Made by a program: the position numbers and the translations under genes
The notes under the pieces: model-generated
Seen by the model: only the letters and a program-made list of their open reading frames with translations
Databases searched by the model: none
Told to the model about the DNA's origin: nothing
DNA from: a virus
Length of the DNA: 64,000 nt
Reading direction: 5' to 3' (one strand)
Virus record (IMG/VR): IMGVR_UViG_3300010389_000007
Span: 1 to 64,000 of that record
Shown here: positions 1 through 48,604 of the stretch, in pieces
How positions within the stretch are numbered: the first letter of the stretch is position 1
Layout: every line of letters begins with the position of its first letter

Positions 1-3000
1 AATCTACATCATATGGACCAGATCCAGATACAGAAACACTAAGAATTCTAATTCCATTACTATTATTAATTGGAACAATTCTATTGTCAGTGGTTTTTAA
101 ATTAGTTCCTGGATCAACTATTGTAATTTTATCTACAGATTGAGATTTAAGTTCAACATTTGCAGAAAAAGTATTTGAAACAACATCATCAGTTTCATTA
201 TACAATATTAATGTTGGTGGATTTATATATTTTCTTCCTGGATCTACTAAAAGAAGATCAGAAACTTTATAGTTATTTTTTACTCTTACTGCTGAGAATA
301 AAGTTGATACTGGAGAAAGAGTTTTATCACTAGAATAGATTGCCTCAATGTTTGATATTTTCACTGCATTGACATTTCCAATAGTTGTAGTTTTTGGATA
401 AAGATTGCAACCTTCTCCAGTTTGAGTTATAATATTCTTTACTCCAGGAACTTTTTGATATGAATTTCCACCATATAAAAGTTTAACTTTAGATATTGGT
501 CCTTTTACGCCACTATCTAAAACTTCATATGATAATTTAGAGTTAGAACTACTATAATCTAATAGTTCTGGGTTGGTACTCATATTATATGTAAATGTGT
601 TGGTTGTAATTCCAATCACAATTCCTTCTGATTGCTTATAGAGACTTTCTTCTATTTTTAATTGATTATTATTAGAAACAGTTGAATCTGAATATATTTC
701 ATCAGATGTTGTAATGTTAGTCAATGTATAATATAAAAGTTTTGGAGTATAGTCTGTAATTGTTAGACTTAGTTCTGTTGAAGATTTTACAACTTCTATT
801 CCATTTTCATTACCAAAATAAGAATTTCTAAAAACATCATCACTGTATAAATTAAAATCTTTTCCTATAATGCTGGAATCTGTCAAATCAAACTTAACTA
901 TTTGATTTTCAAATACTTTAATATTTGGATTTACTTTACCATCTATCAAAACTCTTTTTTCTGTAGATGAATAACCAACAACATATGTTGTAGTTACCCC
1001 AGAAATCACATTAGTGTTTATTTTATTATTAACACTTAAACCATGACTTGATGCAGTAGAAACATTTACATTAATTTGACTGACTGTTCCAGTTACAACA
1101 TCTCTTTGAGTTCTAAATCTATGGTAAATTCCTGTTCCTAGTGCATTATATCTCAATAAATTTTCTCTATTTTTGAGATCTTGCTTACTCTGGACTAATC
1201 CAATTACGTCTGGGGATAATTTAACCACATACAGATCAGGAAGATCTACAAGATTTCCTGCATTAGTAACTATAGAAGAAGCATCTGTTGTATAGGATAC
1301 TTTTTCCCCATCTCTAAATTGATTGAATGGTAAGAATATGCCACCATGTTCAACATATCTTGTAATTGATACCCCATAACCAAGGGGTTTAGTTGATAAA
1401 GTATTTCCAATACCAGCTATGGTACTTATTCCAACAGAAACTGATTCTATTGGTTTAAAATAGTAAGAAATGTCTTGTTCAGTTAAATTTTTCTCTAGAT
1501 CTGGATATGAAAATGTAAATTTAGTTACAAAGTCATAGACTGGGGTGCTAATGGCATATCCAGGAGATCCAGCCTGCCTTAAAACATTTAATTGATTGTT
1601 TAAGTTATCAACTCCATAAATTGTTAAAGTTTCTGTGCCAATGACTAGTCTATCATCTACTCTATAGTTACCAATTGGAGCTTTGACTTTTATAGATGTT
1701 ACTATTCCTGTAGTGGGTTCATCCCCCAAAGGTTGAGTTAGTACTGTAGATGGTGTTTCTACATTAATTTTCCTAAATCCTTCTATTTCTGAAAAATCTG
1801 ATGTTGAAATTCCAGTTATATTTACAAATGTTTGAGATTTAAAGTTATGGGTGGTTGTTGCTATTCCAATTATTCCATCTTCAGTTGAAATAAAAACAAT
1901 ATCATTGAAAGTAGTAATACCAGCAGATATTGAAGTTACTGCTACACCAGAAATACTTTCGACTTCACCAAATGCACCTAAATCAACTTCTTCTTCTTCA
2001 AATTCAACTTTATCTCCAACTTCATATCCAAGACCACCGTCTAAAACATCAACAGAGTCAATAGATCCTTGAGAAACTGCTGTAACATAAGCATCAAAAG
2101 CAGAATCTGTAGTAACATTATCAAAATACTCATAATAATTCTCTTTATCATCAACTCTATATGGCTTAGTATATTTGATGATTCCTAACTCATTAAAGTC
2201 TAAGTTTTGGTTTAAGTCTAAATCAAAATTTGAACTTTCTGGAATATAGTTATAAGTATTTCCAATTATGTATGGGAATTCTGGATTATCTGTAGTATCT
2301 AAAGTGCAATAGTATGCATAGATGCCTTTTGGGTATTCTGGGGTTATGGCAAATCTCCCATTATTTTCATCTAAAGTTCCATTATTTGTGAAAACATAGT
2401 CTTCAATACATTCTAAGGTTGGTGGTGGGCTAATTTTACTTCTGGTATATCCACTTCTCATTTTTATGATATTTCCAGTTCCATCCACATTTTCATATGC
2501 ATATGGACCATAAATTGGGCATCCATCAAAAGCCCATCCAACTATTGGGGAGTGCTTAGTTGAATCTATCCCAAAAGATTGTCTTAAATTTGAATCTAAG
2601 AAAAATGTTCCATAGGTATTTCCAAATCTTGAATATTTTGCACCAAACAAAAATCCATTTTTAAGATTTGATGTTCCAAGTTTAGCAACTTCATTAAGAG
2701 TCCAATCAGTTAAATTAGCGGTTAGATTTAAATCTTTTCCTGATGACTTTATTCTAACTGTAGTATCTGATGAAGCATATCCAACTCCACCATTCACCAC
2801 ATCAACAGATATTATTTGATTATAACTTACAGCACCATTATAAATTTCTCCATTACTGACAACTGCAGTTAATTCTGCACCATATCCCTGACCTAAGATT
2901 TCAAATTCAAAATCATTGACATAATCTTGTCCAGGATTTTTTACTATGACTTTAATTATTTTTCCACGATCAATTAGAGGTAAAAATTCTGCATCATAAC

Positions 3001-6000
3001 CTTCTTTAACTTGAATTTTAGGTCTTTTGTGGAGGTTTACAACGTCTAAAGAACCAAGAAGTTCTTTTGCTGGTTTTGCCAGACCCTTTTGAACATGTAC
3101 TGATTTTACAGATCCTTGTACTACTGGTATAATAGTTGCTCCATATCCAGTTACTGCAGCAGCAGTTTTTTTGTACTTACCAGATACTGTAACTTCAATT
3201 GGAGGATACTGAACAAAATAAGTTGTGGCAAAATCCAATCCAGAAATGTTTAAAATATTTTTCCTTGCAAAATCTGTAGTTAATCTAAAACTGTCATCAT
3301 CAATTTTGTCAATATAATAAATTTGTCCAGCAGTAACCCCACCAAGAAGAGATCCATCTGCAGTAACTACAACCTCTTCTCCACTCCTATATTGGTGATT
3401 TTTAAAGGTAAAGATATTATCAAAAATATTAATGTCTTCTGGAGCAAAAGAAAGTTTTTTATATTTGAATCCAGTTTGAACACCAACAAAAGAAACTTCA
3501 TCAATAATTTGAATTTTTTCTAATGCTCTGAAGTTTTGTACTCCACCTCCAGTAGTTCTAATATCTATTAAATTAGTTTTATTTACAGCATCTAGTCTTG
3601 ATGGTGCTAATCTAAATGAAGTTGCAGCACCAACTTCAGTAATATAATAAACTGACCTATCTAACAGTGTACCATCCTCAACTACAGTTCCAATTCCAAT
3701 GGGAAATGTTCCATTGGTTTCATACACAACTGCTTCTCCCTCTGTAAATGGATGGACAGAATCAAACTGGAAAGTATTGTCTACTGTTCTAACTACAGTA
3801 TCCCTAGTTGTAGCATTAAACTGCAATTCCTTATCAATGTATCTCATTTTCACTGTGGTGGGAATATCTTTTCTATTTCCACCAGTAACTGTCACAGTTG
3901 GAGATTCTTCATAGTTATATCCAGGGTTTTTAACTTTAAGAGATTTTAATTCACCTTCCATTTCTGGAATTAAGAAAGTTTGAGTGTCTTCATCAAAGGT
4001 ATCATTGAATATTCTAAATTGTGGTGGATTTGTTAGGCTGTATCCATTACCACCATTTAAAACTTCAACAGTATCAATTTTTCCATAAAAAATCTTGTCA
4101 TAAGATTTGTAATTTTGTATTTCAACTCCATTACAAAATATTCCCAAAGGTCCAGGTTCTGTTATTACCTTATTTTTTTGGAATCTTGGAGTTTTTGGTA
4201 TTTTTTTGAATACTTTTGGAGTTGAAAATTCATTACCATAAATTTTAGAACTTTGGAGAATTATATTCTCATAATATCCAGCAATAAATCCATTTTCAGT
4301 TAATTCTAGAAAATTTAATTGAACTGTATCTAAACTTTCTCTACTTTCTGATAAAGATATTAGTGCTGGACCAAACTTCTTAACATAATAAGTATTGCCA
4401 GTATTAAATCCAACAGAATCAATAAATTCACTAGTCATGTCTCCAGTGATTCCATATCCAACAACTTTTACTGCTTCCCCATTGTAAAAATTGTGGGATC
4501 CCACTAAAGTGGCAGTATTGTTTGAATTAGCATCAAAAGTAAATTCTTTGATGTATGGACTTACTTCATAATCTGGAAGTCCATTTGAAGTTATGTAGTT
4601 GTAATTATCATCAGCATAAGCATCTTGAATATTTGCAGTATATTTGTCATTAATTTGATTGAATAATTTAGTAAAAGATATTGCTTTTGATTTTTTTAAT
4701 TTTCTTCTAAAAAGAATTTCTTTACCTAAAATACTTGTGTCTTCAATTTTTTGGGTACTAAATTCTTTGGATAAAGCAGTTGAAACCTGTAAGTTAGAAA
4801 GATATACTTGATAAGTTCCTTGAGACCTAACATAAAGATCAACTAAATCATTATTTTTTAAGTTGTGTTCATATTTACTTAAAGCAAGTCCATTAGAAAT
4901 TGCAAATCCTTGCTCTGAAAAAGATCTAACTCCAGCATCAATTTCTTGTACTGCTTCTCCACAATATATGGAAATTGGATGATTAAATTTTAAAGATCTT
5001 ACAAAAATATTATTATCAGTATATCCAACATTATCTACTCTAAGTGGGTCATCAACTAAAGAGTAAGTAGAAGTTTCTGGGGCAAAAACTGAAAGTACAT
5101 TGTTTACTCTAAGTTTTACTACATTGTTAACATCACCATCTTCATAAGAATAGACATAGTTAGTAGAGTATATTTCAGATTTTCTTTCTACCAAATCTGT
5201 AATATTTGCCTCACCAACTTTTGATACATGTAAAAACTGATTGTTGGTTTTATCTGTGTATTCATATTGATTTTCCCCAATGTTAAAGATTCCAGATTGG
5301 GGAAATCCAATAGTTGAATCTACAAAAATAGTATCAGATCCAGATGGAGCATCTTCAACAACATATGTTTTGTATGTTGGAATGAAAGTTCCAGATATTG
5401 ATCCCTTTGGATTTAAGTTGTTTGAGTATCCAGAAAATATTCTAATTTTATAAAGAATTTTTCCATTTAGTTGATATGAGTCAACTGCATATATTGATCC
5501 ACTTGCAGGTAAAACTTTAGAATTGTATGGATCTGAATCCTGATATAAAGTCTGACCAGCAAGTTTATATGGATTCCCTTCAATTAAATCACAAACAAAA
5601 GTTTCAGTAACTATCCACTTGTCATCAGATGGAGTGAAACAATATTCTCTTGGTTTTATAACCTTTACATCTTCTCCATAGAGAACCCTGAATAAAATTT
5701 TATACGCTTCATCAGTTCCTTTTGACTGATAAAATGTTTTTGCTTTGCTGATGAAATTTTGTGGATTAATTTCTTCAGCAAAATCTACATTTTCAAATCC
5801 AGGAGTGTATAAGTTTTTTTGTTTTTTGAAAAATTCTATAAGGAATAAGTTACTTAAGTTATTAACTGTATCTCCAGATGAATGATCACTAGATTCAGTG
5901 GTGGTAAAAACTAAAAACTCATCATTTGTCTCTTGTTGAAGAGAATCTGCTCCACTAAACCCTCTAATGCATCCAGTGAAAGAATTTGTAGTTATTCCAG

Positions 6001-6325
6001 TATAAGTGATAATCTCATCATTTATTTTTAAGAGACCATATGATTGAGGCCAACCATTAGTAGATTCTACATAAATTGTATCACTAAAAAAATCTACATC
6101 ACCAACTAAAGTTGTTGATGTGATTAAATTGGTAGAATTAAAAGATGAAATATTTCTATACGATACCAAGTTTTCAGAGAGATCAACTGGTCCTCCCTGA
6201 AATTCCTGAGAATGATAATATTGCTTTAAGAATTCTGAAAAGTTAGGATTATCTTCTAAAATAAACTCTGGGATTTGGTTATCAACTAAATCACTAATCT
6301 TTACTAGCTTCTGATTTTCTACCAT
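1..6325 (-). CDS. gp7: Baseplate wedge initiator gp7-like giant protein, 5' part (runs off left edge); contains YHYH-like segment at ~2270-2560
   Basis: ATG at 6325 right after gp6 stop; translates MVENQKLVKISDLVDNQIPEFILEDNPNFSEFLKQYYHSQEFQGGPVDL, the typical cyanomyovirus gp7 N-terminus; later KHSPIVGWAFDGCPIYGPY...LDENNGRFAITPEYPKGIYAYY. Absent from ORF track, consistent with no stop inside the window. Confidence 0.85.
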   Translation of the reverse strand, partial: MVENQKLVKISDLVDNQIPEFILEDNPNFSEFLKQYYHSQEFQGGPVDLSENLVSYRNISSFNSTNLITSTTLVGDVDFFSDTIYVESTNGWPQSYGLLKINDEIITYTGITTNSFTGCIRGFSGADSLQQETNDEFLVFTTTESSDHSSGDTVNNLSNLFLIEFFKKQKNLYTPGFENVDFAEEINPQNFISKAKTFYQSKGTDEAYKILFRVLYGEDVKVIKPREYCFTPSDDKWIVTETFVCDLIEGNPYKLAGQTLYQDSDPYNSKVLPASGSIYAVDSYQLNGKILYKIRIFSGYSNNLNPKGSISGTFIPTYKTYVVEDAPSGSDTIFVDSTIGFPQSGIFNIGENQYEYTDKTNNQFLHVSKVGEANITDLVERKSEIYSTNYVYSYEDGDVNNVVKLRVNNVLSVFAPETSTYSLVDDPLRVDNVGYTDNNIFVRSLKFNHPISIYCGEAVQEIDAGVRSFSEQGFAISNGLALSKYEHNLKNNDLVDLYVRSQGTYQVYLSNLQVSTALSKEFSTQKIEDTSILGKEILFRRKLKKSKAISFTKLFNQINDKYTANIQDAYADDNYNYITSNGLPDYEVSPYIKEFTFDANSNNTATLVGSHNFYNGEAVKVVGYGITGDMTSEFIDSVGFNTGNTYYVKKFGPALISLSESRESLDTVQLNFLELTENGFIAGYYENIILQSSKIYGNEFSTPKVFKKIPKTPRFQKNKVITEPGPLGIFCNGVEIQNYKSYDKIFYGKIDTVEVLNGGNGYSLTNPPQFRIFNDTFDEDTQTFLIPEMEGELKSLKVKNPGYNYEESPTVTVTGGNRKDIPTTVKMRYIDKELQFNATTRDTVVRTVDNTFQFDSVHPFTEGEAVVYETNGTFPIGIGTVVEDGTLLDRSVYYITEVGAATSFRLAPSRLDAVNKTNLIDIRTTGGGVQNFRALEKIQIIDEVSFVGVQTGFKYKKLSFAPEDINIFDNIFTFKNHQYRSGEEVVVTADGSLLGGVTAGQIYYIDKIDDDSFRLTTDFARKNILNISGLDFATTYFVQYPPIEVTVSGKYKKTAAAVTGYGATIIPVVQGSVKSVHVQKGLAKPAKELLGSLDVVNLHKRPKIQVKEGYDAEFLPLIDRGKIIKVIVKNPGQDYVNDFEFEILGQGYGAELTAVVSNGEIYNGAVSYNQIISVDVVNGGVGYASSDTTVRIKSSGKDLNLTANLTDWTLNEVAKLGTSNLKNGFLFGAKYSRFGNTYGTFFLDSNLRQSFGIDSTKHSPIVGWAFDGCPIYGPYAYENVDGTGNIIKMRSGYTRSKISPPPTLECIEDYVFTNNGTLDENNGRFAITPEYPKGIYAYYCTLDTTDNPEFPYIIGNTYNYIPESSNFDLDLNQNLDFNELGIIKYTKPYRVDDKENYYEYFDNVTTDSAFDAYVTAVSQGSIDSVDVLDGGLGYEVGDKVEFEEEEVDLGAFGEVESISGVAVTSISAGITTFNDIVFISTEDGIIGIATTTHNFKSQTFVNITGISTSDFSEIEGFRKINVETPSTVLTQPLGDEPTTGIVTSIKVKAPIGNYRVDDRLVIGTETLTIYGVDNLNNQLNVLRQAGSPGYAISTPVYDFVTKFTFSYPDLEKNLTEQDISYYFKPIESVSVGISTIAGIGNTLSTKPLGYGVSITRYVEHGGIFLPFNQFRDGEKVSYTTDASSIVTNAGNLVDLPDLYVVKLSPDVIGLVQSKQDLKNRENLLRYNALGTGIYHRFRTQRDVVTGTVSQINVNVSTASSHGLSVNNKINTNVISGVTTTYVVGYSSTEKRVLIDGKVNPNIKVFENQIVKFDLTDSSIIGKDFNLYSDDVFRNSYFGNENGIEVVKSSTELSLTITDYTPKLLYYTLTNITTSDEIYSDSTVSNNNQLKIEESLYKQSEGIVIGITTNTFTYNMSTNPELLDYSSSNSKLSYEVLDSGVKGPISKVKLLYGGNSYQKVPGVKNIITQTGEGCNLYPKTTTIGNVNAVKISNIEAIYSSDKTLSPVSTLFSAVRVKNNYKVSDLLLVDPGRKYINPPTLILYNETDDVVSNTFSANVELKSQSVDKITIVDPGTNLKTTDNRIVPINNSNGIRILSVSVSGSGPYDVD

Positions 6326-6326
6326 C

Positions 6327-8210
6327 TTAACTTCTTATTTTAGTTCCAGTGGAATGACTTGATTCTGGTTGGAATCTGCTTCCTGAAGCATTTTCTCCAG
6401 AGGATATAATATCTTTCACCATACTTATTGAACTCTTTCCAATATCTAATTTTAAGTAAATTGATTTTTTAGCAACTACATCATTGGAGTATGGAGTTGC
6501 TTCAATTTCAATGATATTATTGGGAAGAGCAGTAGAAGATACATTTATATTATCTATATCAATTTCACCAGTAATATAATCTACTGTTCCTATGTCTTGC
6601 TGCTCTGTTGATTCAGTTTCCCCATCAACAGAAAACAGATACAATCTTCCAGTTTTTAAGTCTGATTCTGGTTTGTCTGAAATGTAAACCTTTCTAGACA
6701 GACCATTAATAAAGAATCCTGAACTTCTTATATTATATCCAGATGGATCAACATAAAATCTATTTTCAAAACATACAAGATACTGTGTTGGTTCACCAAT
6801 AATAGTACCAATATTTCTTCTTATTCTAACTTGTGTAATATTTGATGTTACAGAATCACTTGCTGTATCAATAAGTCTGACTGACTTACTGTACTTAAAT
6901 CTTCCTCCAAATTTGTTTAGATCAGTTGAATTTGCATATGTTTGAAGTGAGTTGGAAATTTTTGTCTTCAAATCATTTGGAGCACCAACAAAATTTGAGT
7001 TATAGTAAACAGTTGATATCAATTCAACATACAGGACATTAATATCTACGAAGTTTGGTTGAATTCCTGCAACAGAATATTTCTTTAGTTCAGAGATTAA
7101 AAACTCTTTTGTTTGTTCAGAAAGGTAATCTGAATTTTTTGGTTTTGCTGCTATGAAAACTTTGCCAAATTGTGGTGGACTTAATTCTTCCCCACCATAT
7201 GCAGTTACAGACTCTATGTTAGGATATATTGATGGTAGCAGTGATTCATAATCAGATGCAGTTACTGCTCTATATTGGGTGGAATATAATCTAGGAGCAT
7301 AATACCTTACTGATTCTATAGATTGAATATCATCACCATTATTTGCTGATTCTGTGGTTATGATGACACCAACTGCTGATGAAATATTTGCACCAGTATC
7401 TGATACTATGGTTCCAGAGAAATCAAAATCATTAGCCCCATTACCCTCTTTGCCATTTGTTGTGATGTATGTGATGTTTACTTGATTATTGTTTTCAAGT
7501 TTCTTTCCAATTACCCCATCACCAAAGAAAACTTCATATTTTTCATCAGATATCTCTTGAATCAGAAAAACTGCAGAATTTTTATCTACGCCAATAATAT
7601 TTTCTATTGGCAAATATTCTCTTGAGGTTGTTGATTCTGAAGTTTCCTTTACATTAACTCTAATTGTAGATGTATCAATGTAAGGATTTGGTAAAATATA
7701 TTTTTGATTTGGTTGGGAATTATCTACAACAAAGGTTTTTGATAAAAGAGTTCCCTCATAGATGGTTATATTTTCAAAAGATGCTTGTCCATTAGACACA
7801 CCAACAGTAATATCCTCTGGAATAGAAAAGATATAACTGGTATTATCTAAATTTCCTGTACAAACTACACCTTTCTTTAAAGTTGCTGTGTTATAACTTG
7901 TATTTACGTCTGTTAAACTAAAGGTTATATTTGCTGTTGCTGCTCTTCTTGATAGTGGAACATACCCAACATTCTTTGCAAGAGATACTACGTTCTCTCT
8001 GAGGGTAGCACTATCAATAAATGACTCATTAACCACCATGTTGGTGTTGAATGCAGTCAGATAGGTATTATAGGCAAGTACATCAATTAATACAGAGAAG
8101 TTTGAACCTTCAAAATCAAAGTCACTGAAGGTTGAATTTGCTCTTAGATAGTCTTTAATTGATGTTCTAATCTGAGAAAAGTCTAGATTAGTGAATTGAG
8201 TAACTGCCAT
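6327..8210 (-). CDS. gp6: Baseplate wedge subunit gp6
   Basis: N-terminus FTNLDFSQIRTSIKDYLRANSTFSDFDFEGSNFSVLIDVLAYNTY and RAVTASDYE motif of T4 gp6; lies between gp25 and gp7. Confidence 0.95.
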   Translation of the reverse strand: MAVTQFTNLDFSQIRTSIKDYLRANSTFSDFDFEGSNFSVLIDVLAYNTYLTAFNTNMVVNESFIDSATLRENVVSLAKNVGYVPLSRRAATANITFSLTDVNTSYNTATLKKGVVCTGNLDNTSYIFSIPEDITVGVSNGQASFENITIYEGTLLSKTFVVDNSQPNQKYILPNPYIDTSTIRVNVKETSESTTSREYLPIENIIGVDKNSAVFLIQEISDEKYEVFFGDGVIGKKLENNNQVNITYITTNGKEGNGANDFDFSGTIVSDTGANISSAVGVIITTESANNGDDIQSIESVRYYAPRLYSTQYRAVTASDYESLLPSIYPNIESVTAYGGEELSPPQFGKVFIAAKPKNSDYLSEQTKEFLISELKKYSVAGIQPNFVDINVLYVELISTVYYNSNFVGAPNDLKTKISNSLQTYANSTDLNKFGGRFKYSKSVRLIDTASDSVTSNITQVRIRRNIGTIIGEPTQYLVCFENRFYVDPSGYNIRSSGFFINGLSRKVYISDKPESDLKTGRLYLFSVDGETESTEQQDIGTVDYITGEIDIDNINVSSTALPNNIIEIEATPYSNDVVAKKSIYLKLDIGKSSISMVKDIISSGENASGSRFQPESSHSTGTKIRS

Positions 8211-8614
8211 TAGTATCTGGTTGGTTGTAATACAAAGGTTATTGCTTGTTGTGGTACACTTAGTCCAACAATATCATAGTTAATACTCACTTCCATGGCA
8301 TTGTCTTCTGGATAAAGAGCAACATCCACACTTCTCAATACAACTCTTGGTTCAAAATTATTAATTACATTCCTGATTTCATCCCTAAGAGGTTCTACAA
8401 TGGTAAAATCTGCTAGTTCAAAAAAATAATTATCAACTTTAGACCCTAAAAGGGGATTAAAGAACCTCTCACCAACTCTAGTTCTCACTAGATTGATGAC
8501 TGATCTCTTAATGGCATCCTCATTTCTTAGTGAAATGATGTCATTAGTGACTGGATTCCTCTTAAAAGACAGGCTTATATCTTTAAATCCCCTTGAGACA
8601 GATTCTAAAGGCAC
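8210..8614 (-). CDS. gp25: Baseplate wedge subunit gp25
   Basis: FKDISLSF...AIKRSVINLVRTRVGERFFNPLLGS...INNFEPRV motifs of the gp25/GPW family. Confidence 0.95.
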   Translation of the reverse strand: MPLESVSRGFKDISLSFKRNPVTNDIISLRNEDAIKRSVINLVRTRVGERFFNPLLGSKVDNYFFELADFTIVEPLRDEIRNVINNFEPRVVLRSVDVALYPEDNAMEVSINYDIVGLSVPQQAITFVLQPTRY

Positions 8615-8639
8615 TTTGAGAGTCTATATTTACTTTTAT

Positions 8640-8885
8640 TTATTGGGGTTTTCCATAAATTGGTTCAGTCCCATACTCCCAATCATCATAGTCCTCATCA
8701 TTTCTAATTTTTTCATGAATCTCTGCCTGTTCTTTTAAGTGATGGTCTTGATATTCCATCACTTCTTGTAGAAATTTTCTTTTTTCTTCATACACATTAA
8801 TGTGTTTCATTGATCCATAGTCAGATACAAGTCTATTTGTACCCCACATCTTCATCATGTACTCTTGATCTCTGTCTGATTGCAT
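8640..8885 (-). CDS. Hypothetical protein (cyanophage-type, usually upstream of gp25)
   Basis: AGGAG RBS; DDWEYGTEP-type C-terminus. Confidence 0.7.
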   Translation of the reverse strand: MQSDRDQEYMMKMWGTNRLVSDYGSMKHINVYEEKRKFLQEVMEYQDHHLKEQAEIHEKIRNDEDYDDWEYGTEPIYGKPQ

Positions 8886-8936
8886 AATTGCTCCTGATTT
8901 TGGTTAAAATCAGAACTTTTTAAGGGGTTGCTATCC

Positions 8937-9641
8937 CTAATCAGAGTTTATACAACGTGGATCACAAGGATTTTGTCCGCAATTTGGACAAGATTCACGT
9001 TCTTTAGGTGTTTCCCAAAAATATTCATCAGTATCTCCCAATCTTCCCCAGTCTACACCATTTTCTACCTGATATTCTATGGTAGAAACCTTAAAATCTG
9101 GAATTTTTGGAGTTTCAGGTGTCAAACTGTTGTCAAAGATTCTGCATCTATTGTTTGGATATAGTGCAAACTGTCCATTGACCAGTTCAATGAGATTAAA
9201 TGACTTATGTTCTTCTGGAATTTCACTTGTACTGTAATCTATCACATCAGCACTGTTATGATAGTTGTCTAAGGTGCAGATATAATGCCCTCTAAGGGTG
9301 CCAAAATGCCTTGACCTTATCTCCCAGTCCATTGATGCAACAAACTGCTTACAGACTGTTGTAACACCATAATCCATACAGTTCCAAAACTGTAAATTTG
9401 GAAGGTCTAGGTCAGGGGTTGGAGTCTCAGGTCTAGATACAAATGCTGATATGGGCAACTTATCATACATTGCACCATACTCAGGTAAGTATGTCTCAAA
9501 ATAAAAAGCACGCCCAGGCATCGACTTTGCCGATACCCAGACGCCCTCTACAAATTCTCCATGACCATCATTTAGGTCTCTGAGATATTCTTTTCTTACC
9601 CAGACTTTCTGTGCAGGTAGGTTAGTGATTAAACAACTCAT
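8937..9641 (-). CDS. Conserved cyanophage hypothetical protein
   Basis: 234 aa ORF with WVRKEYL...GRAFYFETYLPEYGAMYDKLPISAF...YPNNR motifs recalled from T4-like cyanophages. Confidence 0.8.
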   Translation of the reverse strand: MSCLITNLPAQKVWVRKEYLRDLNDGHGEFVEGVWVSAKSMPGRAFYFETYLPEYGAMYDKLPISAFVSRPETPTPDLDLPNLQFWNCMDYGVTTVCKQFVASMDWEIRSRHFGTLRGHYICTLDNYHNSADVIDYSTSEIPEEHKSFNLIELVNGQFALYPNNRCRIFDNSLTPETPKIPDFKVSTIEYQVENGVDWGRLGDTDEYFWETPKERESCPNCGQNPCDPRCINSD

Positions 9642-10745: not shown

Positions 10746-10851
10746 AAGATTAATTCAATGTTGTGATGACGTACGTATCACTTCATATGATACTGGATTA
10801 TTTATCCCCTGTCAATGAAAGAGATATTGGGGTACGAGCCCCTATAAGAAA

Positions 10852-11097
10852 CTATGAGTCTTCTTGAAGATCTGGATGAGGTGCATACAAAGGACCTTCA
10901 TAATCATGAGATTCCTCAGGAAGGCCATCACCATCCTCCTCTACATGAGTGTCAATATTAATAGTAAACTCTTCTACCTGAAAGTCTGTCTTGATTCCTG
11001 CATGGATCATCTGGGAAAGTTCTGTGAGCGACTGCTGGCATTCTGCCAATGAACCCTCACAAAACACCCTGTCTCTTGCAATCAACTTGTAGGGCAT
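10852..11097 (-). CDS. Hypothetical protein
   Basis: 81 aa ORF with GGAGG RBS. Confidence 0.65.
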   Translation of the reverse strand: MPYKLIARDRVFCEGSLAECQQSLTELSQMIHAGIKTDFQVEEFTINIDTHVEEDGDGLPEESHDYEGPLYAPHPDLQEDS

Positions 11098-11375
11098 TTT
11101 TTACCTCCAAAAAATTTTTTCTTATAATGGGACCCAATTATATTTAATCCCTCCCACAGGCAAATTCCAATATAACTGAACTCATCCAAGGGGCTGGTCT
11201 CTGTGCCATACACATCATTATAGAGCAACCTTACAGGGGATTTTTCACCCCAGAAAATTTTTTTAATCACTTGAAATATCTCTCTCTGTTTCAAAGTTTT
11301 GTAGGTTAGGGATGTTTGCTTTTTTCGCATTACCCCTTCAGGGTAACACAAAGGGCACAAAAACCCTGCTAATTC

Positions 11376-11404
11376 ACTATAGCATAGATCACACATTTTG
11401 TCAA
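11376..11404 (-). promoter_or_regulatory. Sigma70-type promoter firing leftward from the DnaA-box island
   Basis: TTGACA-17 nt-(TGC)TATAGT on minus strand. Confidence 0.7.
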
Positions 11405-11471
11405 CCCCTTGACACTGAGACCCACACATTTCACTGAGACTAACACTGAGATTCCACACTGTTTTATACTG

Positions 11472-11738
11472 TTTTCCACAAGTTTTCCACAGAATTATAC
11501 ACAGTTTTCCACAGGTTTCTTATACTGAGTTTCACTGAGATTGTGTCACTCACTGGTGTCTCACTGTTTTATCACTGAGACCTGTGGAAAACTATAACAC
11601 TGTGCCACTAATTTGGGTGTCCTGGGGGTGTTGACTTCTGGGAGGGTTTGTGATACAATGGGGGCCAAGATCACTAGACTATGAGACATTTACTGTGTTT
11701 TCCACAAAATATACAATAATTGTGGAAACTGTGGAAAA
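11472..11738. repeat. Cluster of DnaA-box-like 9-mers (putative replication origin)
   Basis: TTTTCCACA at 11472, 11483, 11505, 11698; TTATACACA at 11495; reverse TGTGGAAAA at 11583 and 11730; TGTGGAAAC at 11721; interspersed CACTGAGA repeats; no credible ORF. Confidence 0.7.
11602..11659 (+). promoter_or_regulatory. Early-type promoter on plus strand within the origin-like island
   Basis: GTGCCA-N10-TGTCCT palindrome (11602-11623), then TTGACT-17 nt-TACAAT (11631-11659). Confidence 0.65.
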
Positions 11739-11798
11739 CTCAACTATATTTAATTTGACATTTTTATTGATTCCAACATATCTTACGGAAGACACATT

Positions 11799-11999
11799 TC
11801 AGACTAGTTGATGCCTATAGTCAATGGATTTAATACACCAACCAGATGCACTTGTGATCTCTTCAACTAGATCATCTCCATCATCTGCCTCCCAGGTTGT
11901 ACCAATGTAATCATCATAAACTTCACTCTTTTCCTGCTCAGTCATGGGGTACAAACTATCATCAAAGTCAAACTCAATTTCAGTGACTTGATATAACAT
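11799..11999 (-). CDS. Acidic hypothetical protein
   Basis: 66 aa; WEADDGDDLVEEITSASGWCIKSIDY; last gene of the early cluster. Confidence 0.75.
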   Translation of the reverse strand: MLYQVTEIEFDFDDSLYPMTEQEKSEVYDDYIGTTWEADDGDDLVEEITSASGWCIKSIDYRHQLV

Positions 12000-12121
12000 T
12001 AGTTCTGTACCTTCTTAATAGCAGTCATGATAGATGTGGTCAACAAAATACAAACATCATCTTTACAGACAGCATAGACAGGTTGCTTAGTGTTGACATC
12101 AAAAGTGTACTTAATGGTCAT
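11999..12121 (-). CDS. Small hypothetical protein (40 aa), not in ORF track
   Basis: MTIKYTFDVNTKQPVYAVCKDDVCILLTTSIMTAIKKVQN; start and stop overlap both neighbours (TGATG, TAATG). Confidence 0.65.
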   Translation of the reverse strand: MTIKYTFDVNTKQPVYAVCKDDVCILLTTSIMTAIKKVQN

Positions 12122-12414
12122 CAAACTTGCTCCTCTTTGTGCATATCAATCATCATCTCATTGATCTCATCTTGGTTGATACTTTCATCATCCCATGCAA
12201 CACTATCAGCAGTGGTGAAGTTATCAACATTGTGCATGTTTCTGATGAACTTTTCATAGGCAGTTTCATCATCATTTTTATACTCTACACATGCCACAGC
12301 AGTGTTATAGAGAAACTGATTGTTTTGAATCCAGAGACTAACATTCCAGGTCTCATAATTTGCCCAACCATTGTAAGTTTGTTGGGTCATTTGTGTTGTT
12401 CCTTGATTTTCCAT
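12121..12414 (-). CDS. Early hypothetical protein (YNGWxNYETWNVxLW family), probably leaderless
   Basis: Start reassigned to MENQ ATG at 12414, 7 nt after the TATGCT -10 box. Confidence 0.75.
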   Translation of the reverse strand: MENQGTTQMTQQTYNGWANYETWNVSLWIQNNQFLYNTAVACVEYKNDDETAYEKFIRNMHNVDNFTTADSVAWDDESINQDEINEMMIDMHKEEQV

Positions 12415-32111: not shown

Positions 32112-35100
32112 TCACTCTCCTAATTTTTTCTTGAGTTCGTCAAGTTCTCTTCTCATAGTATTTATTATTTCATTCTGTTCTTTAACTGCTTCAATTAACA
32201 GTGCAGTTAAGTTTCCATACTCAACTGAATACTCATCAACGTCCTTAGCATGAGTGACAACTTCAGGTACAATTTGCTCAACTTCCTGAGCAATCAGACC
32301 CATCTTGATTCCTTCCTTACGGTTCTTAGCTTTTGTAAGATCCCATTCAAAAGTAACACCACGAAGTTTGAGAACCTTATCTAATGGACTCTCAATAGTT
32401 TCAATGTTCTTCTTGAGTCTGACATCAGATGCAGCAGTGATTGTGCCAGTTGCATATACATCACCACTAACATAAAGTTCATATGCAGATGATGTTGTAG
32501 ATCCAGTAATACCAACACAATTATCGCCATATGAATAGTAAACAGGCCATATTCCACCAGCAGAATAGTAAATTCCACCATTACCAGTGGCACTCTGAAA
32601 CATTAAATGTGGACCTCTTCCTGAATCAAATAAAAATCCAAAATATCCACCTCTATTGCCATCTACTTTCCATGCACCATAAGATGTAGTTTCATTTGCT
32701 CTAAGGTCAGCATCATTAGTTGACTCATAAATTCCTTCATCAACTCTCAGTCTTTTGTAAGAATAGTTGTTGTTAGAAGTTCCATTGATCTGGAATCTAG
32801 CAGTGAGACTGTTATAGTCGTCCATGAACCTATAACCACCATAATTAGAATTAGCACCAAAACTAATACCAGTATGGAAGTTAATTCTCAGATCTGGATA
32901 TGGAGAATTCCATGTACCATCTTCTTGGAAAATATCATAGGCATATGAACTAATTGAAAGGTTAGAATCACCACCAACATTCCTAGGTTTTAGAGTTCTA
33001 TAAAGAAGTCTAGTTCCATCATAAGTGAGATTAGCAGCACCAGCAGGTGAACCATTGTTATTATAGATTAATTGTGTATCTGATCCTGCTACTGGACCAG
33101 GAATACCTTGGAATCCTTGAGCACCCTGACGACCTTGAGCACCTTGAGCACCAGCAGATCCTTGTCTACCTTGAGCACCTTGAGCACCTGCTGTACCCTG
33201 TCTACCTTGAGCACCTTGAGCACCTGTTGCACCTTGAGGACCTCTAGGTCCAGCAGATCCTTGTCTACCTTGTGCACCTTGTGCACCTGCTGATCCCTGT
33301 CTTCCTTGAGCACCCTGAGCACCTACAGCACCTTGTCTACCTTGAGCACCTTGAGCACCAGCAGCACCCTGGGCTCCAGCAGCACCTTGAGCACCTGCTG
33401 TACCTTGTCTTCCTTGAGCACCCTGAACTCCAGCAGCACCTTGGAAACCTTGGAATCCTTGTGCACCAACTGATCCCATAGGACCAAATACTATAGTATA
33501 AACTCCAGTAGTGGTGTTTATTGATGATGAAACATGAAGTCCACCAGAGTGAGTAATAGATCTACTTCTTTGGAGAACACCATCCTTATAATACTTTACA
33601 GTTGATCCATCATAAGTTATTGAGAAAATAGTTGAAGTGGTATATGAACCATAAGTTCCAATATTGGATCCATTCTCATAAATTCTTGCTGTTCCAGCAT
33701 TCACATACCAAGCATAATCAAGTGTTGTATATGATGTAGATGCTGTTGGATCAGCAGTCAATGCAATCATTCCAACGCCACTAGTATTATTAACTTGGAA
33801 TGCCATGTATGCATATTCATACTCTTCTGCAGAGTAAACCCTTGCATTCCATCCACTACCAGATGTTCTTTGGAATTGATTTGGTCCAGTTTGAGTTACT
33901 GTTGACAATACTGGTGTCCAAGAACCTCCTCCAAGTTGTCCTTGAGCACCCTGAGCACCACCAGATCCTTGAACTCCAGAATTTCCTTGAGCACCTTGTC
34001 TACCTTGTGCACCTTGAGCACCAGCAGCACCTTGAGCACCTGCTGCACCTTGTCTACCTTGGGCACCCTGAACTCCAGCAGCACCTTGTCTGCCTTGAGC
34101 ACCTTGAGCTCCAGCAGCACCTTGTCTACCTTGAGCGCCCTGAGGTCCAATTGCACCTTGAGCACCTGTAGTTCCAGAAGCACCCTGAGCACCAGCAGCA
34201 CCTTGAGCACCTGCTGCACCTTGTCTACCTTGAGCACCTTGTCTGCCCTGATATCCTTGTGCACCTTGTACACCTTGATTTCCTGTGGCACCTTGAACGC
34301 CTTGATTTCCTTGTGCACCTTGAGGTCCAATAGCACCTTGAGCACCTGTAGTTCCAGAAGCACCTTGAGCACCCTCTACACCAGGAGATCCTTGTCTACC
34401 TTGAGCACCTTGAGCACCTGCTGCACCTTGAACCCCTTGGTATCCTTGAGCACCTTGTCTACCTTGGTGTCCTTGAGCACCTTGTCTACCTTGAGCACCT
34501 TGGACACCTGCAATTCCCTGTGGTCCTATGGATCCTTGAGCACCTACAGAACCTTGTCTACCTTGAGCACCTTGTCTACCTTGGGCACCTTGAGCACCTG
34601 TAGATCCTTGTCTACCTTGTGCTCCTTGTATTCCTTGAGCACCCTGAGCACCTGTAGATCCTTGAACACCTTGAGCACCTTGAACACCTTGAGAACCCTG
34701 AACACCTTGAGCACCTTGTCTACCTTGTGCTCCTTGTACTCCCTGTGCACCCTGAGGTCCAATTGCACCTTGAGCACCAGCAGATCCTTGTCTACCTTGA
34801 GCACCTTGAGCACCTACAGCACCTTGTCTGCCTTGAGCACCTTGAACTCCTTGAGCACCCTGAGCACCTGTAGATCCTTGAACACCTTGAGCACCCTGAA
34901 CACCTTGAGTACCTTGAGCACCTACAGCACCTTGTCTACCTTGAGCCCCTTGTCTACCCTGTGCACCTTGAGGTCCAATAGCACCTTGAGCACCTACAGC
35001 ACCTTGTCTGCCTTGAGCACCTTGAGCACCTACAGATCCTTGTCTACCCTGAGAACCCTGAATACCTTGTGCACCCTGGGCACCTACAGCACCTTGTCTA

Positions 35101-38100
35101 CCTTGAGCCCCTTGTCTACCCTGAGCACCTTGAGAACCTTGGGGTCCTAAGAATCCTTGAGCACCTTGAGCACCTACAGCACCTTGTCTACCCTGAGAAC
35201 CTTGTCTTCCTTGTGCACCCTGAACACCTTGGAATCCTTGTGGTCCAATAGCACCCTGAACACCTTGGGATCCTTGTCTACCTTGAGCACCTTGGAATCC
35301 TTGGGCACCTTGACGACCTTGTGCACCTTGAACTCCTTGGAATCCTTGGAATCCTTGTGGTCCAATAGCACCTTGTCTACCCTGTGCACCCTGAGCACCT
35401 ACAGAACCTTGTCTACCCTGAGCACCTTGAACACCTTGTGAACCCTGCCTACCTTGGAATCCTTGAGCACCCTGAGGTCCTTGGAATCCTTGAGCACCTT
35501 GAGCACCTACAGCACCTTGTCTACCCTGAGAACCTTGTCTTCCTTGTGCACCTTGAGCACCTACAGTTCCTTGTCTTCCTTGTGCACCTTGAACTCCTTG
35601 GAAACCTTGAGCACCCTGAACTCCTTGGAATCCTTGTGCACCTTGAGGTCCAATAGAACCTTGAGTTCCATTTGTTCCTTGTACACCTTGGAATCCTTGA
35701 GCGCCTTGAGGTCCAATAGCACCTTGAACACCTTGAGCACCTTGTCTTCCTTGTGCACCTTGGAATCCTTGTGCACCCTGAACACCTTGGAATCCTTGTG
35801 CACCCTGAGGTCCATTTAGAGGTTGTGTCCACTTAACACCAGTTCCTGTAGATGCAAGAACAGAGTTTGCAACACCTACAGTTCCTGGAGTATCATATAG
35901 AGGTCCATTGATCTTTAGATTTGTTGTAGTGGTAAATCCAGAAGATCTAATATCATGAACTCTAATGCTTGGAGTTAGAGTTACAATTCCAGAAGATACT
36001 GATAGGTTAGTGGAATCAAAGGATGCAATACCTTTTGTAGAGCTTGTTGCTAATGTATGGGTGTTGCTAGTTACTCCAACAACCCTACCATAAGCATCTA
36101 CAGTAAGATGTGAAATAAATTTGTCAGTCCCTGCAGATAGAGAAGTAACAGGAGTTGATACAGTTGCCAGATCAATATCATCAGGATTAATTACAATTCT
36201 TAGAGTGCTTGCAGTTCCAACATTAAAGTCTGCACCAGAATCATATAAACCAAGACCAGCACCTTTCTGAGATGGTGATGAAATCTGAGTAAATTCAATT
36301 GCAGAAACACCAATTGCAAGTGCATAAGTGTCTCTGGTAACAAGAGCAAAACCTTTTCCTTGCTCTTCTACACCACCAATAATGAAAGCAAAGTCTCCAG
36401 TTTCAATTTCCCCAACTTGGTCATAGTCACTAGCTCTTGTTAATTCCCAAGAAGTTGATCCATTACCAACTCTGGTTACAGTGTAGAAACCATTTTCATA
36501 TAGATTTGTCTGCTCTTTAATTAGGATTCTTTCATCTAAGAATAAAGTGGTATCATCAATGGAAGTTGTACCTACACCAACACCATAGAGTTTTGCTCCA
36601 ACACCACTAGCGCCATTATCATAATTTGAAACTAAGTTAATTGTAGATCCAAGAGAAACTGCCTTCTGAACCTGAATGCCTTGTGCAAAGGCATCAACAT
36701 AATTCTTGGATGCAAGTTCTGCATTTTGTAGAGGGATTTGCTCATTGACAAATACTCTATCAACATAAAGATTGCTGCTGATTCCAACATCACCCTTGAC
36801 CTCAAGGGTTCTTGTCATTACAGAAGTATTAACACCAACCTTGTTTGTAGAATCATTGAAGTATAGTTCAGCACCACCAAAGTCTCCGCCATCATTATAT
36901 TGAATCTGACCATCAGCACCGCCTGGAGTTACATCAACTGTGATGGTTACACCAACTCCAGTTCCATCATTGGTTGCAGTAATATACTGTCCAACAAAGT
37001 TGAGTGCAGTTACACTTCCTGCAGTACCTACAATAGATCCTTCATCTTTAATGGTTAGACCATTGAAGTTATTGACTGTTGCAAGTGGAACCCAATCAAC
37101 ACCAGTTCCAGTTGAAATTAGAACTTCATTAGCATTACCAGTTTCTGCATTTCCATCATACAATCCACCAGAAACATAAAGACTGTTGGTTGCAGTTACA
37201 ATACCAGCAGTTACATCACCATTCAGTGCACCAGAGAATCCACCAGTGGATGTTGTGACTCCAGTGATCTGAACTCCATTGTTTGTGGTCTCAAATTTCT
37301 TGGATCCGTTGTAGTAGAGTTCTACTGCACCATCTGTGATGAATTTTGCTTTAGTTTCAGTTCCATTGGTATTTTTTACTTCTAAATTATCAGCATTGAT
37401 ATTAAGATTTCCAGAACCAGTTTCTGAAATAATAGAATTATTATTGGAAGAGTTGTGGAAAATCTGTAAGTCAGTACCATCACCAAATCTCAATCTATCA
37501 TCATCACCAAGATTTACATTACCTTGGAATGTAGAAACACCAGAGACATTCAGTGATGTGATTCTTGCATCAGCAACTGTACCAACACCAGAATAATTGA
37601 GATCTGTACCAGACAGAGTTGTTACAATACCAGTAACTATTCTTGCTTCTGTTGGTACATGGAGGTTGGTTACTGTTCCTGTTGTTGATGAAAGTGTGGT
37701 TACAATACCAGAAACAATTCTTGCCTCTGTAGGAACATGCAGTGTTGGTGATGTAGTTACTCCTGAAACCTTGAGAGTATTTGCAATAACTACATTATCT
37801 GGGAGTCCAACTGTAACTGTAGCACCTTCACCAGTACCAGTAACTTCAATTTCATTTGTAGTTCCAGAAACTGATTCAACATAATCTCCAGTAGTATCAG
37901 TTCCAAGTTCTACTGAGTTTGGTTGAATAGTTGCTGCAAAAGATACATTACCTGTGCCATCAAAGCTAATGGGAGAAGCAAGTATATCTCCAGTAATTTG
38001 GAAAGTTCTTGCTGTTTCTAATTTTGTTGCATCTGTTGCTAATCCTGCATTAGCAGCATACACAGCATAAGTTGCTATATCTGCATTAGTTGCTATTCCA

Positions 38101-45868: not shown

Positions 45869-48604
45869 TTAGATGATGACCCACTCTGCCCCAGATGGCA
45901 CAGTAACTGTAACCCCAGAATTAATAAGTATTGGACCAATACTCATGTTATTGTAAGATGCGGAAACTGAGTAATTTGATGAAATTGTACCAAGACTTCT
46001 AAAGAAAGGTACACCAGTCAAAGTAATTTCTGCAGAAGAATTGACTCCTCCAGATGTTAAAGGTCCTGCAAAAGATAATGCTCCAGTTCCTGGATTAAAT
46101 TGGAATGCAGTAGCAGAAGCTCTTACTCTTGGAGTTGCATTGACTCCAGCAGAACTTACAAATACTGGATAGTATGTTCCATTTGAAGTGGTGTTTGTTG
46201 CATTAACAACATTAGATGGTCCTGGAGCACCTTGGAAACCTTGGAAACCTTGTGGTCCCTGGGGTCCAATAACACCATCAGTTCCCTGATTTCCATTTAT
46301 ACCCTGGAATCCTTGAGCACCTTGTCTACCTTGATTGCCTTGGTTTCCTTGTGCCCCCTGAGGTCCTCTTGGTCCCTGTGGTCCAATTGGACCAGGAGTT
46401 CCAGCACCACCATCAAGTCCTGGTGATCCTTGAGATCCTTGAGGTCCAACTGAACCTTGAGGTCCTAGTCCACCAAGAGCACCCTGAGGTCCTCTAGCAC
46501 CTTGTGGTCCAATTGGTCCCTGTGGACCTTGGAATCCTTGAGGTCCTTGAACACCTTGAGGTCCAATATTTCCTTGAGGACCATATGGACCTTGAGGACC
46601 TTGGCGTCCTTGGGCACCCTGAGGTCCTGCAGATCCCTGTGGTCCAGTTCCTTGAGGTCCAATGGCACCTTGTATGCCTTGATATCCTTGAGCACCTTGT
46701 GGACCAATATTTCCTTGTGGTCCTTGGAATCCTTGTGGCCCTTGAACACCTTGAGGACCTCTAGATCCTTGTGGACCAATTTGCCCCTGTGGTCCCGCTA
46801 ATCCTTGTGAACCCTGAACACCTTGAGGACCTTGGAATCCTTGAGGACCTCTAGATCCTTGAGGTCCTTGTGCACCTTGTGGACCAGTTACATATCCAGC
46901 ATCAACATAAGAAACTCCATTACAAACATATAAATGTCCATCTGCATTTACAATGTAAGCATCACCTTGAGTTCCACCAGTACAAGCTGGCAAATCTCCC
47001 ACTGTAGCTACTGCACCTAAGATGTTAATTGCAGTTCCTGGTGCACCTTGAGGACCTTGGAAACCTTGAGGTCCCTGAACACCTTGAGGTCCTCTTAATC
47101 CTTGTGGTCCTTGTGGACCAAATCCTTGTGGTCCTTGGATACCTTGAGGACCTAAGAATCCCTGTGGTCCTTGGAAACCTTGGGAACCTTGTACACCCTG
47201 GTATCCCTGAACACCTTGAGGTCCTTGTGCACCTTGTGGTCCTTGGAAACCTTGAGCACCTTGGGGTCCAACTGGTCCTTGAGGTCCTTGGAATCCTTGT
47301 GGTCCTTGAATTCCTTGAGGACCTTGTGGTCCAATTCTTCCCTGAACACCTTGAGGTCCCTGAACACCTTGTGGTCCTTTTTGGCCAACTTCACCTGGGA
47401 GACCTTGAGATCCTTGAGGTCCTTGGAATCCTTGTGGTCCTTGAACACCTTGAGGTCCTCTTAATCCTTGTGGACCAGTATTTCCTTGTGGACCTTGGAA
47501 TCCTTGAGGTCCAATAAATCCTTGAGGACCTTGGGAACCTTGAGGACCTTGGAAACCTTGTGGTCCCTGAACCCCTTGTGGACCTATTTCTCCTTGAGGA
47601 CCTTGAACACCTTGAGGTCCAAGATCTCCTTGTGCTCCTTGAGGACCTTGGAATCCCTGTGGACCTTGAATGCCCTGAGGACCTTGTGCACCTTGTGGTC
47701 CTGTCCCCTGTGGTCCAATAAATCCTTGTGGTCCTTGGAATCCTTGAGGACCATATCCTTGTGGTCCAATGAATCCTTGTGCACCTTGAGGACCTTGGAA
47801 TCCTTGAGGACCTCTAGATCCTTGTGGACCTTGGAAACCTTGAGGTCCTTGTGGTCCAATTGGTCCCTGTGGACCTTGATAACCTTGGAAACCTTGAGGT
47901 CCAATAAATCCTTGAGGACCTTGGAATCCTTGAGGTCCTTGTGGACCCAATCCACCAGCAACATTAGTCCAAGTAAATCCTGCTCCTGGTCCTAATGATG
48001 TTAATACCTTTGGAAATGTTCCTACATCTCCAGCGTAGTTTGCAATATCTCCACTAACTCTTACTGTAGTTACGCCAATATCAACTCCAACAGTTGGATC
48101 AGTGCTACCAATTCCAAGTCTTGATGATCCTGGAATGAAAACTAAATGTGTTGGTGCAATGTCAAATGCAGTTACAACACCTGGAGCTCTTTGATCTGTA
48201 AATCCAAGATAATATGGATTTAAATCTGCAGGTTCATCTGCAGAAATAGATGCTGTGATGGTAATTGTAGCAACACCTACGCCACCTGGCTCAATTGGTG
48301 TTACAGTTACACCAGAACCAACAAAATTTAACTGGGTGACAGATCCAGCTAAACCTACAATATTTCCTTCATCTCTAACAGTAATTCCTCTATCAATAAC
48401 ACCTGGAGGAAGTTGCTGCCAATATCTTCTTCCAGGATCAGTATCTACAGCAACAAGGATATATTGTTGTCCAATAGGTGGATTATCACCAGGGGGATCC
48501 CCCAAATTGGGTTCAGCCTGATTTAATCCAAGATATTGGTATCTATCAGCTGTTAATCTATCTTGGGGGGACTTAATTACCCTGCGACTAAGATACTTTG
48601 CCAT
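45869..48604 (-). CDS. Collagen-like fibre protein with (Gly-Pro/X-Gln)n repeats
   Basis: Triplet region ~46220-47947 interrupted once by a ~50-aa globular insert; MAKYLSRR N-terminus. Confidence 0.88.
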   Translation of the reverse strand: MAKYLSRRVIKSPQDRLTADRYQYLGLNQAEPNLGDPPGDNPPIGQQYILVAVDTDPGRRYWQQLPPGVIDRGITVRDEGNIVGLAGSVTQLNFVGSGVTVTPIEPGGVGVATITITASISADEPADLNPYYLGFTDQRAPGVVTAFDIAPTHLVFIPGSSRLGIGSTDPTVGVDIGVTTVRVSGDIANYAGDVGTFPKVLTSLGPGAGFTWTNVAGGLGPQGPQGFQGPQGFIGPQGFQGYQGPQGPIGPQGPQGFQGPQGSRGPQGFQGPQGAQGFIGPQGYGPQGFQGPQGFIGPQGTGPQGAQGPQGIQGPQGFQGPQGAQGDLGPQGVQGPQGEIGPQGVQGPQGFQGPQGSQGPQGFIGPQGFQGPQGNTGPQGLRGPQGVQGPQGFQGPQGSQGLPGEVGQKGPQGVQGPQGVQGRIGPQGPQGIQGPQGFQGPQGPVGPQGAQGFQGPQGAQGPQGVQGYQGVQGSQGFQGPQGFLGPQGIQGPQGFGPQGPQGLRGPQGVQGPQGFQGPQGAPGTAINILGAVATVGDLPACTGGTQGDAYIVNADGHLYVCNGVSYVDAGYVTGPQGAQGPQGSRGPQGFQGPQGVQGSQGLAGPQGQIGPQGSRGPQGVQGPQGFQGPQGNIGPQGAQGYQGIQGAIGPQGTGPQGSAGPQGAQGRQGPQGPYGPQGNIGPQGVQGPQGFQGPQGPIGPQGARGPQGALGGLGPQGSVGPQGSQGSPGLDGGAGTPGPIGPQGPRGPQGAQGNQGNQGRQGAQGFQGINGNQGTDGVIGPQGPQGFQGFQGAPGPSNVVNATNTTSNGTYYPVFVSSAGVNATPRVRASATAFQFNPGTGALSFAGPLTSGGVNSSAEITLTGVPFFRSLGTISSNYSVSASYNNMSIGPILINSGVTVTVPSGAEWVII

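Follow-up and report, generated by a model that had tools for sequence, protein, structure and literature searches.

T4-like cyanophages are generally counted among the most abundant viruses of the sea. In P1-type origins, initiator repeats occur together with DnaA boxes of the host and a region rich in AT, and datA and DARS of Escherichia coli are clusters of DnaA boxes that regulate DnaA. According to the accessible part of the review PMC3016281, the phage T4 origins oriF (uvsY), oriG (gene 34) and oriE possess a promoter and, within ~100-150 bp, an AT-rich downstream unwinding element; strand switches are found close to the more active T4 origins, and the repeats of oriE have been likened to iteron-type plasmid origins. 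On the bacterial side, TTTTCCACA is the DnaA box published for cyanobacteria (PMC4674748, accessible part), and DnaA-trio repeats, which separate the proximal box from the AT-rich region, mark the unwinding side of many bacterial origins (PMC8235120, likewise in its accessible part). We found no published replication-origin map for T4-like cyanophages and no published description of DnaA boxes in cyanophages, although subscription journals or supplementary files may hold one; PMC6359870 and PMC2297514 are, in the parts that were accessible, unrelated to the subject. Here, we analyse positions 11376-11798 of IMG/VR virus record IMGVR_UViG_3300010389_000007, a spacer in which DnaA boxes are combined with two divergent promoter-like sites (P-left and P-right), short repeats and an AT-rich tract. 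The window, that is, the whole stretch analysed, comprises the first 64,000 nucleotides of this 84,834-bp viral record, which is ~47% complete.

Our analysis leads to three conclusions. Sequence and comparison give good support to the view that the sites are DnaA boxes of the host type, set in a phage module that is conserved. Many T4-like cyanophages share, in single copy, the cis-acting module that occupies 11376-11798. Finally, we tentatively read this module as an origin, in which a T4-style promoter and unwinding cassette has host DnaA-box arrays attached to it, a reading that we consider close to an even call.

The earlier note on this DNA had described eight DnaA-box-like 9-mers, six of them perfect, with four arranged in tandem at a 10-12-bp pitch, and all of these sites were located. 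The perfect TTTTCCACA sites start at 11472, 11483 and 11505 on the plus strand, at 11583 on the minus strand, at 11698 on the plus strand and at 11730 on the minus strand. The remaining two are TTATACACA at 11495 and a site with one mismatch (GTTTCCACA) at 11721-11729 on the minus strand. Measured pitches between the tandem sites at 11472, 11483, 11495 and 11505 are 11, 12 and 10 bp. Six of the seven perfect sites of the window, and likewise of the whole record, lie inside 267 bp (11472-11738), and the shuffled window contains a mean of 1.39 perfect sites with a maximum of 4. The loose pattern TTWTNCACA, which picks up the site at 11495 in addition to the perfect ones, is not enriched window-wide (11 matches vs 12.8 expected), but it is locally clustered, with 7 of the 11 matches within the same 267 bp.

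The assignment of TTTTCCACA to the cyanobacterial DnaA-box consensus agrees with PMC4674748, as far as its accessible part goes. Triple box arrays were found in other phyla too, which marks the motif as a strong DnaA box of general occurrence rather than one private to cyanobacteria. In the cyanobacterial class that holds Leptolyngbya PCC 7375, tandem TTTTCCACA pairs are present in 248 of 301 genomes (4 matches for the reversed control); many of the 53 genomes that have no such pair are small (1.6-3.0 Mb), and most of the larger genomes carry several. One 2.4-Mb genome of the class has four perfect boxes within 340 bp upstream of dnaN. Of five small genomes, G092 and G111 pack 4 boxes into 130-190 bp (those of G111 stand upstream of dnaN) and G135 packs 8 into ~210 bp; G065 shows scattered single boxes only and G088 isolated pairs only. 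A comparison of 230 phage boxes from 37 elements with 144 chromosomal boxes from 34 cyanobacterial clusters extended the likeness to the flanks and the spacing of the sites. Thus, G precedes the box (position -1) in 77% of phage and 60% of chromosomal cases and follows it (position +1) in 76% and 70%, respectively, and the pitch has its modes at 11-12 and 20-22 bp in both kinds of array. In addition, a DnaA C-terminal (DNA-binding) domain is encoded in none of the 5 phage records searched, 2 of which are at least 98% complete. Because consensus, flanks and pitch match those of the chromosome and no phage DnaA domain was found, host DnaA would be the most economical binder of these boxes.

The presence of the module in relatives, on which the earlier note had made its proposal depend, was borne out: boxes, promoter and AT-rich cassette are kept together, in single copy, in many related phages. 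This became apparent only beyond the immediate surroundings of the flanking gene 11799-11999, which belongs to the family phrog_2460. When 77 loci with a phrog_2460 relative were examined for a box cluster with 3-kb flanks, the cluster was found directly behind the gene in only 2, both 98-100% identical to the window in that gene, and a third locus (L054) has 6 boxes 1.9-2.3 kb behind its phrog_2460 relative. These loci first suggested that the module is not conserved, a view that was overturned by scans of whole records and of a viral collection. In the whole-record scans, S-RIM8, S-RIM50, S-H35 and two other genomes (G017 and G018) turned out to have clusters 3-5 kb further along. S-RIM8, S-RIM50 and S-H35, which are complete and nearer to the window at the flanking gene, have three-box clusters 4-5 kb downstream of that gene. 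Across the relatives in which the position of the phrog_2460 gene is known, the box cluster is located 0.06-5 kb downstream of it. In 30 further records, most of them fragments, there were 55 boxes vs 12 reversed-control matches, with at least three boxes in 500 bp in only 5 of them.

The scan of the viral collection for three close TGTGGAAA sites returned at least 115 stretches. Among the matches listed, ~45 also encode T4-like cyanophage proteins of the window, many with the box spacing of the window, and tblastn searches placed the cluster of many such loci between relatives of the window's two flanking genes. Confinement to a single locus is also seen at the level of whole records. The start region of P-right occurs once in the present record, a 180.8-kb genome that is 100% complete has 7 of its 8 boxes within 300 bp, and in four further records the single cluster takes up 8 of 8, 7 of 8, 6 of 6 and 5 of 8 boxes.

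Alignment of eight elements (A1) indicated which parts of the module are held most strictly. Five of the six perfect boxes have a mean identity of 0.96, as has the start region GCCAAGATCAC, vs 0.70 for the remaining spacer. The hexamers of the two promoters reach 1.00 and 0.90, both P-left hexamers being invariant in all eight, and the three perfect array boxes (11472, 11483 and 11505) and the inverted box at 11583 are likewise invariant.

To avoid selecting elements by their boxes, we used the P-right signature alone as a query, which retrieved 75 viral contigs. In the resulting 76 rows, window included, the interval from -330 to +230 holds at least four perfect boxes in 58, one to three in 8 and none in 10. 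Removal of duplicates and truncated cases left 50 distinct elements with full flanks; 39 of these have at least five perfect boxes (5-8, in the same layout), 5 have one to three and 6 have none, and the P-left signature is present upstream in 31. Counted over 43 non-redundant elements, and with the selection signature set aside, the 7-mers that occur at least 40 times and are most enriched all lie within AGTTTTCCACAGG, at 24- to 57-fold; ACATTTA reaches 11.6-fold and CTCACTG 14-fold, CTCACTG and TCACTGT together spanning 12- to 14-fold. The inverted box occupies offsets near -77, -67, -58 or -47 to P-right, which differ by roughly one turn of the helix. In most elements, further boxes, mostly as a plus/minus pair, are grouped downstream of P-right at +48 to +190 from its signature.

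Promoter-like sites were found at both places where the earlier note had put divergent promoters, leftward at 11404 and rightward at 11631. The orientation of P-right opposes all neighbouring genes, and its transcript is predicted to start near 11666. No conserved open reading frame (ORF) is found behind P-right, the longest ORF being shorter than 60 amino acids in 42 of 44 distinct elements, and elements differ by more than 100 nt in how far the box pair lies from the start region. The start region is followed in the window by one GAGACATTTAC unit. In some relatives, the unit at this place occurs in tandem, with lengths of 10 to 31 bp, and several of these relatives have no boxes; locus L243, for instance, shows four 10-bp tandem units, and L227, L228 and L238 show 31-33-bp tandem units together with zero DnaA boxes. 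These tandem-repeat and box-less relatives lead us to define the widely kept core as promoter, repeat unit and AT-rich tract. Because 6 of the 50 distinct elements have no DnaA boxes, these are best described as a frequent add-on to that core.

The tract that was said to begin at ~11740 was also recovered, as a GC content of 0.25-0.27 over 11700-11799, which is the minimum of the interval 10800-12300, and its AT-rich consensus is kept in alignments A1 and A4. The five interspersed repeats were found as well: of the 7 copies of CACTGAGA in the window, five lie in 11413-11580, and these five are on the plus strand. As a motif, CACTGAGA fared less well: it is only partly conserved, and the cores that are kept are CACTG, with 9 plus-strand copies within 190 bp, and ACATTT, with 5 copies on the plus strand of the region. 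None of these repeats is evenly spaced in the window.

In blastn searches of the spacer against named phages, only short matches to the promoter region were obtained, in S-PRM1, S-SCSM2R and Sf-FS3; the cassette of isolate S-PRM1 has two boxes and that of isolate S-SCSM2R has zero. In S-PRM1 (MH629685.1, L200:2150-2480), a GC-rich block with many CGCAGG-type repeats replaces the array upstream of the promoter, and plus-strand genes are located downstream of its promoter version, so that the promoter may also serve genes there. In a more distant cyanomyovirus (L054:5074-5840), two groups of DnaA boxes (3 and 6 sites) surround an AT-rich stretch that contains about seven copies of another private repeat, TTCGTGTAT; the host-type boxes are unchanged. 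The gut Microviridae records MZ089777.1 (Microvirus mar31, 1945-2017) and MG945484.1 (830-875) have 80-87% identity to the tandem-box stretch, with 5 matching places in Microvirus mar31, which suggests that similar box arrays exist in unrelated small phages.

How does this module relate to the origins described above? The earlier note had set it apart from the promoter- and R-loop-based origins of T4. This contrast fails, because the module itself is a T4-style orphan promoter with a downstream AT-rich block and its boxes, missing in 6 of the 50 elements and in S-SCSM2R, are accessory (T4 anatomy as in the accessible part of PMC3016281). At the sequence level, a promoter with an AT-rich element directly downstream is common to the T4 origins and to the module, and both parts are kept in the module's relatives; with oriE in particular, the module shares an early promoter of the host-polymerase type and perhaps the direct repeats, in a phage that is also T4-like. 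This likeness is one of anatomy. The module differs from T4 origins in having no strand switch or skew shift and in its 6-8 host-type boxes flanking the promoter, DnaA having 0 occurrences in the accessible part of that review. Direct repeats stand together with host DnaA boxes and an AT-rich tract within a few hundred bases, as in iteron plasmid and P1-type origins, and here too the repeat sequence differs by lineage (CACTG and ACATTT in the window, TTCGTGTAT in L054) with the boxes constant. Unlike those origins, the module has no recognisable Rep-type gene beside it, the adjacent 82-residue protein matching no family, and its repeats are short and irregular. Cyanobacterial oriC shares with the module the box consensus, the flank preferences, the 11- and 21-bp head-to-tail pitch and an adjoining AT-rich tract; the module differs from it in lying between phage genes and in being built around a conserved orphan promoter, with boxes that are optional among relatives.

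On these grounds, we regard the module as the best, still unproven, candidate for the unmapped replication start of this phage. It would act as an origin for early, origin-dependent replication, in the manner of T4 oriE, oriF and oriG. Host DnaA would bind the arrays cooperatively. Transcription from P-right, an orphan early-type promoter, would read through the repeat unit and the convergent box pair into an easily melted tract, which the RNA would invade as an R-loop to prime DNA synthesis. The part of DnaA would be either to stimulate P-right from its helically fixed positions or to help open the AT-rich tract or hold it open.

A number of observations weigh against an origin at this place, and some of them also against its likeness to oriC. 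Cumulative GC skew falls steadily through 11.5 kb without a turn, in a record that is incomplete and in a window where skew follows gene direction. Genes on both sides of the module run the same way, with no strand switch between them. DnaA-trio runs were sought in 31 distinct elements, where the longest relaxed run has a mean of 1.90 vs 2.11 in shuffled sequence and none reaches four or more. Neither dnaN nor dnaA stands beside the module, both flanking genes being phage genes of unknown function. With no trio run, no dnaN or dnaA and no skew turn, the term oriC mimic used in the earlier note is too strong. Boxes are dispensable for the cassette, as the box-less elements and S-SCSM2R attest, and small box clusters also occur without the P-right signature in S-RIM8 and S-H35. 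The genome survey described above concerns the whole cyanobacterial class and not the phage's own host, and many small genomes of that class (1.6-2.7 Mb) are without tandem pairs. Contigs from RNA libraries (4 runs) span 11367-11862, at low depth, strandless and with DNA carry-over possible, and since they also span the stretch between the promoters, a P-right transcript is neither shown nor placed by them. More generally, DnaA binding, P-right transcription, R-loop formation and replication start are all steps that we infer, and the roles of origin, sink and regulator are inseparable by sequence alone.

Among the alternatives, a DnaA-dependent transcription switch fares best, although we consider it unlikely. 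Host DnaA would here activate or repress both divergent promoters, the module would not be an origin, and expression of the small-protein operon and of the orphan RNA would track host DnaA-ATP, i.e., the cell-cycle or daily state. Such a switch would fit the position of the boxes, some between the two conserved promoters and others shortly downstream, and the helical register of the inverted box with P-right; the downstream pair could be a roadblock at variable distance, and neither the skew nor the DnaA-trio analysis indicates an origin. It leaves unexplained why what is kept most widely, box-less elements included, is a promoter without an ORF that is aimed at a conserved AT-rich tract, and why the module occurs once per genome when ordinary early promoters are many.

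The earlier note had also considered a sink of the datA type. In the manner of datA or DARS, the multiplying phage genomes would titrate or remodel DnaA and so shut down or re-program host initiation, which we think quite unlikely. The 6-8 high-consensus boxes per phage genome, set in cooperative arrays, are what such a sink or recycler would use, and the small clusters of S-RIM8, S-RIM50 and S-H35 that have no P-right signature would suit it too. Like datA and DARS, the module is a DnaA-box cluster outside the chromosomal origin that could alter the amount or state of free DnaA. It differs from them in that its cluster is set at helically fixed distances from a promoter and next to an AT-rich tract, neither of which a sink needs, and boxes accompany the cassette in 44 of the 50 distinct elements.

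It is very unlikely, in our judgement, that the 9-mers merely resemble DnaA boxes and are bound by a phage protein, for which the candidate would be the adjacent small basic protein. In 31 of the 50 distinct elements, the gene of this conserved orphan protein immediately follows P-left, as this reading would have it. Its family, aligned from 20 members taken from the loci (A3), ranges from 50 to 92 amino acids with 11 invariant columns, and its variants differ in length in frame, by loss either of a block of 12 residues or of the first 20-30; the small ORF is therefore a real gene. Against its being the binder, DnaA-box arrays of cyanobacterial chromosomes have the same 9-mer with the same flanks and spacing, and boxes are present in modules that have neither P-left nor the small gene. 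Moreover, the 82-aa protein belongs to no recognisable DNA-binding family, searches having returned no Pfam, PHROG or PDB match and no Atlas hit of at least 0.8. The earlier note had suggested a phage initiator as the binder of the interspersed repeats, and the 82-aa protein may act on these private repeats.

Finally, a structured small RNA or terminator hairpin, in which the inverted boxes would act in RNA by ending transcripts or within a regulatory RNA made from P-right, is highly improbable: the convergent pair can make a 10-bp RNA stem (inverted repeats I1 and I16) and the RNA-library contigs span the stretch, but the region behind P-right has no conserved fold (consensus energy -0.04 kcal/mol, with no compensatory pairs), Rfam matches get no lower than E = 0.36, the pair went unflagged in the terminator scan, and the same 9-mer stands upstream in head-to-tail arrays where a hairpin is impossible.

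The genomic setting agrees with the cyanomyovirus context and the nearby gp25 gene of the earlier note: the DNA neighbours of the window are Synechococcus and Prochlorococcus myoviruses, and a gp25-like gene was located (Table 1). Nearly all long ORFs of the window are on the minus strand. The module fills a gene-free spacer of ~400 bp between the 66-aa gene and the small ORF, and the stop codon of the former, which converges on it, coincides with the end of the AT-rich tract. A short terminator-like hairpin (11352-11367, minus strand) is present in the leader between P-left and the small gene. As to composition, the GC content of the window is ~0.30 in the first 8 kb and ~0.39 beyond, with composition steps at 1-9000, 33000-36000 and 46000-48000, and it rises to 0.49-0.51 within ORFs of 2949 and 911 aa.

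Table 1. Position of the module's components and of the genes around it (window coordinates).
Feature	Position	Strand	Description
gp25-like baseplate wedge gene	8210-8614	-	
Small basic orphan protein, 82 aa	11085-11330	-	First gene behind P-left
P-left, leftward sigma-70-type promoter	11376-11404	-	TTGACA-17-TATAGT, 11/12 matches
CACTG(AGA) repeats	11413-11602	+	5 CACTGAGA copies, 9 CACTG
Head-to-tail DnaA-box array	11450-11513	+	Pitch ~11 bp; perfect 11472, 11483, 11505; TTATACACA 11495; weak site (2 mismatches) 11450
Inverted DnaA box	11583-11591	-	Faces array; ~40 bp upstream of P-right -35 hexamer
P-right, rightward sigma-70-type promoter	11631-11659	+	TTGACT-17-TACAAT, 10/12 matches, extended -10 TG
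Start region GCCAAGATCAC and one GAGACATTTAC unit	11664-11693	+	Start region invariant
Convergent DnaA boxes	11698-11738	.	Downstream of P-right: 11698 (+), 11721 (-, one mismatch), 11730 (-)
AT-rich tract	11740-11798	.	GC 0.25-0.27, ACATTT units
Upstream flanking gene	11799-11999	-	66 aa, phrog_2460, function unknown; syntenic anchor of the module

The module offers a concrete, testable candidate origin in which a T4-style cassette is joined to host-type DnaA-box arrays. Isolates with versions of the cassette or of the box cluster exist (S-PRM1, S-SCSM2R, S-RIM8, S-RIM50 and S-H35), which brings bench tests within reach. For T4-like cyanophages in general, it is possible, if doubtful, that early replication begins at a hybrid origin made of an orphan promoter and unwinding tract plus host DnaA-box arrays, its onset being gated by the level or ATP state of the host initiator. 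If this were true, the onset of phage replication would follow the host cell cycle and the day-night rhythm. Judging from the module itself, these phages may sense the replication initiator of their host or manipulate it, which could link the timing of infection to the cell cycle and to the light-dark rhythm.

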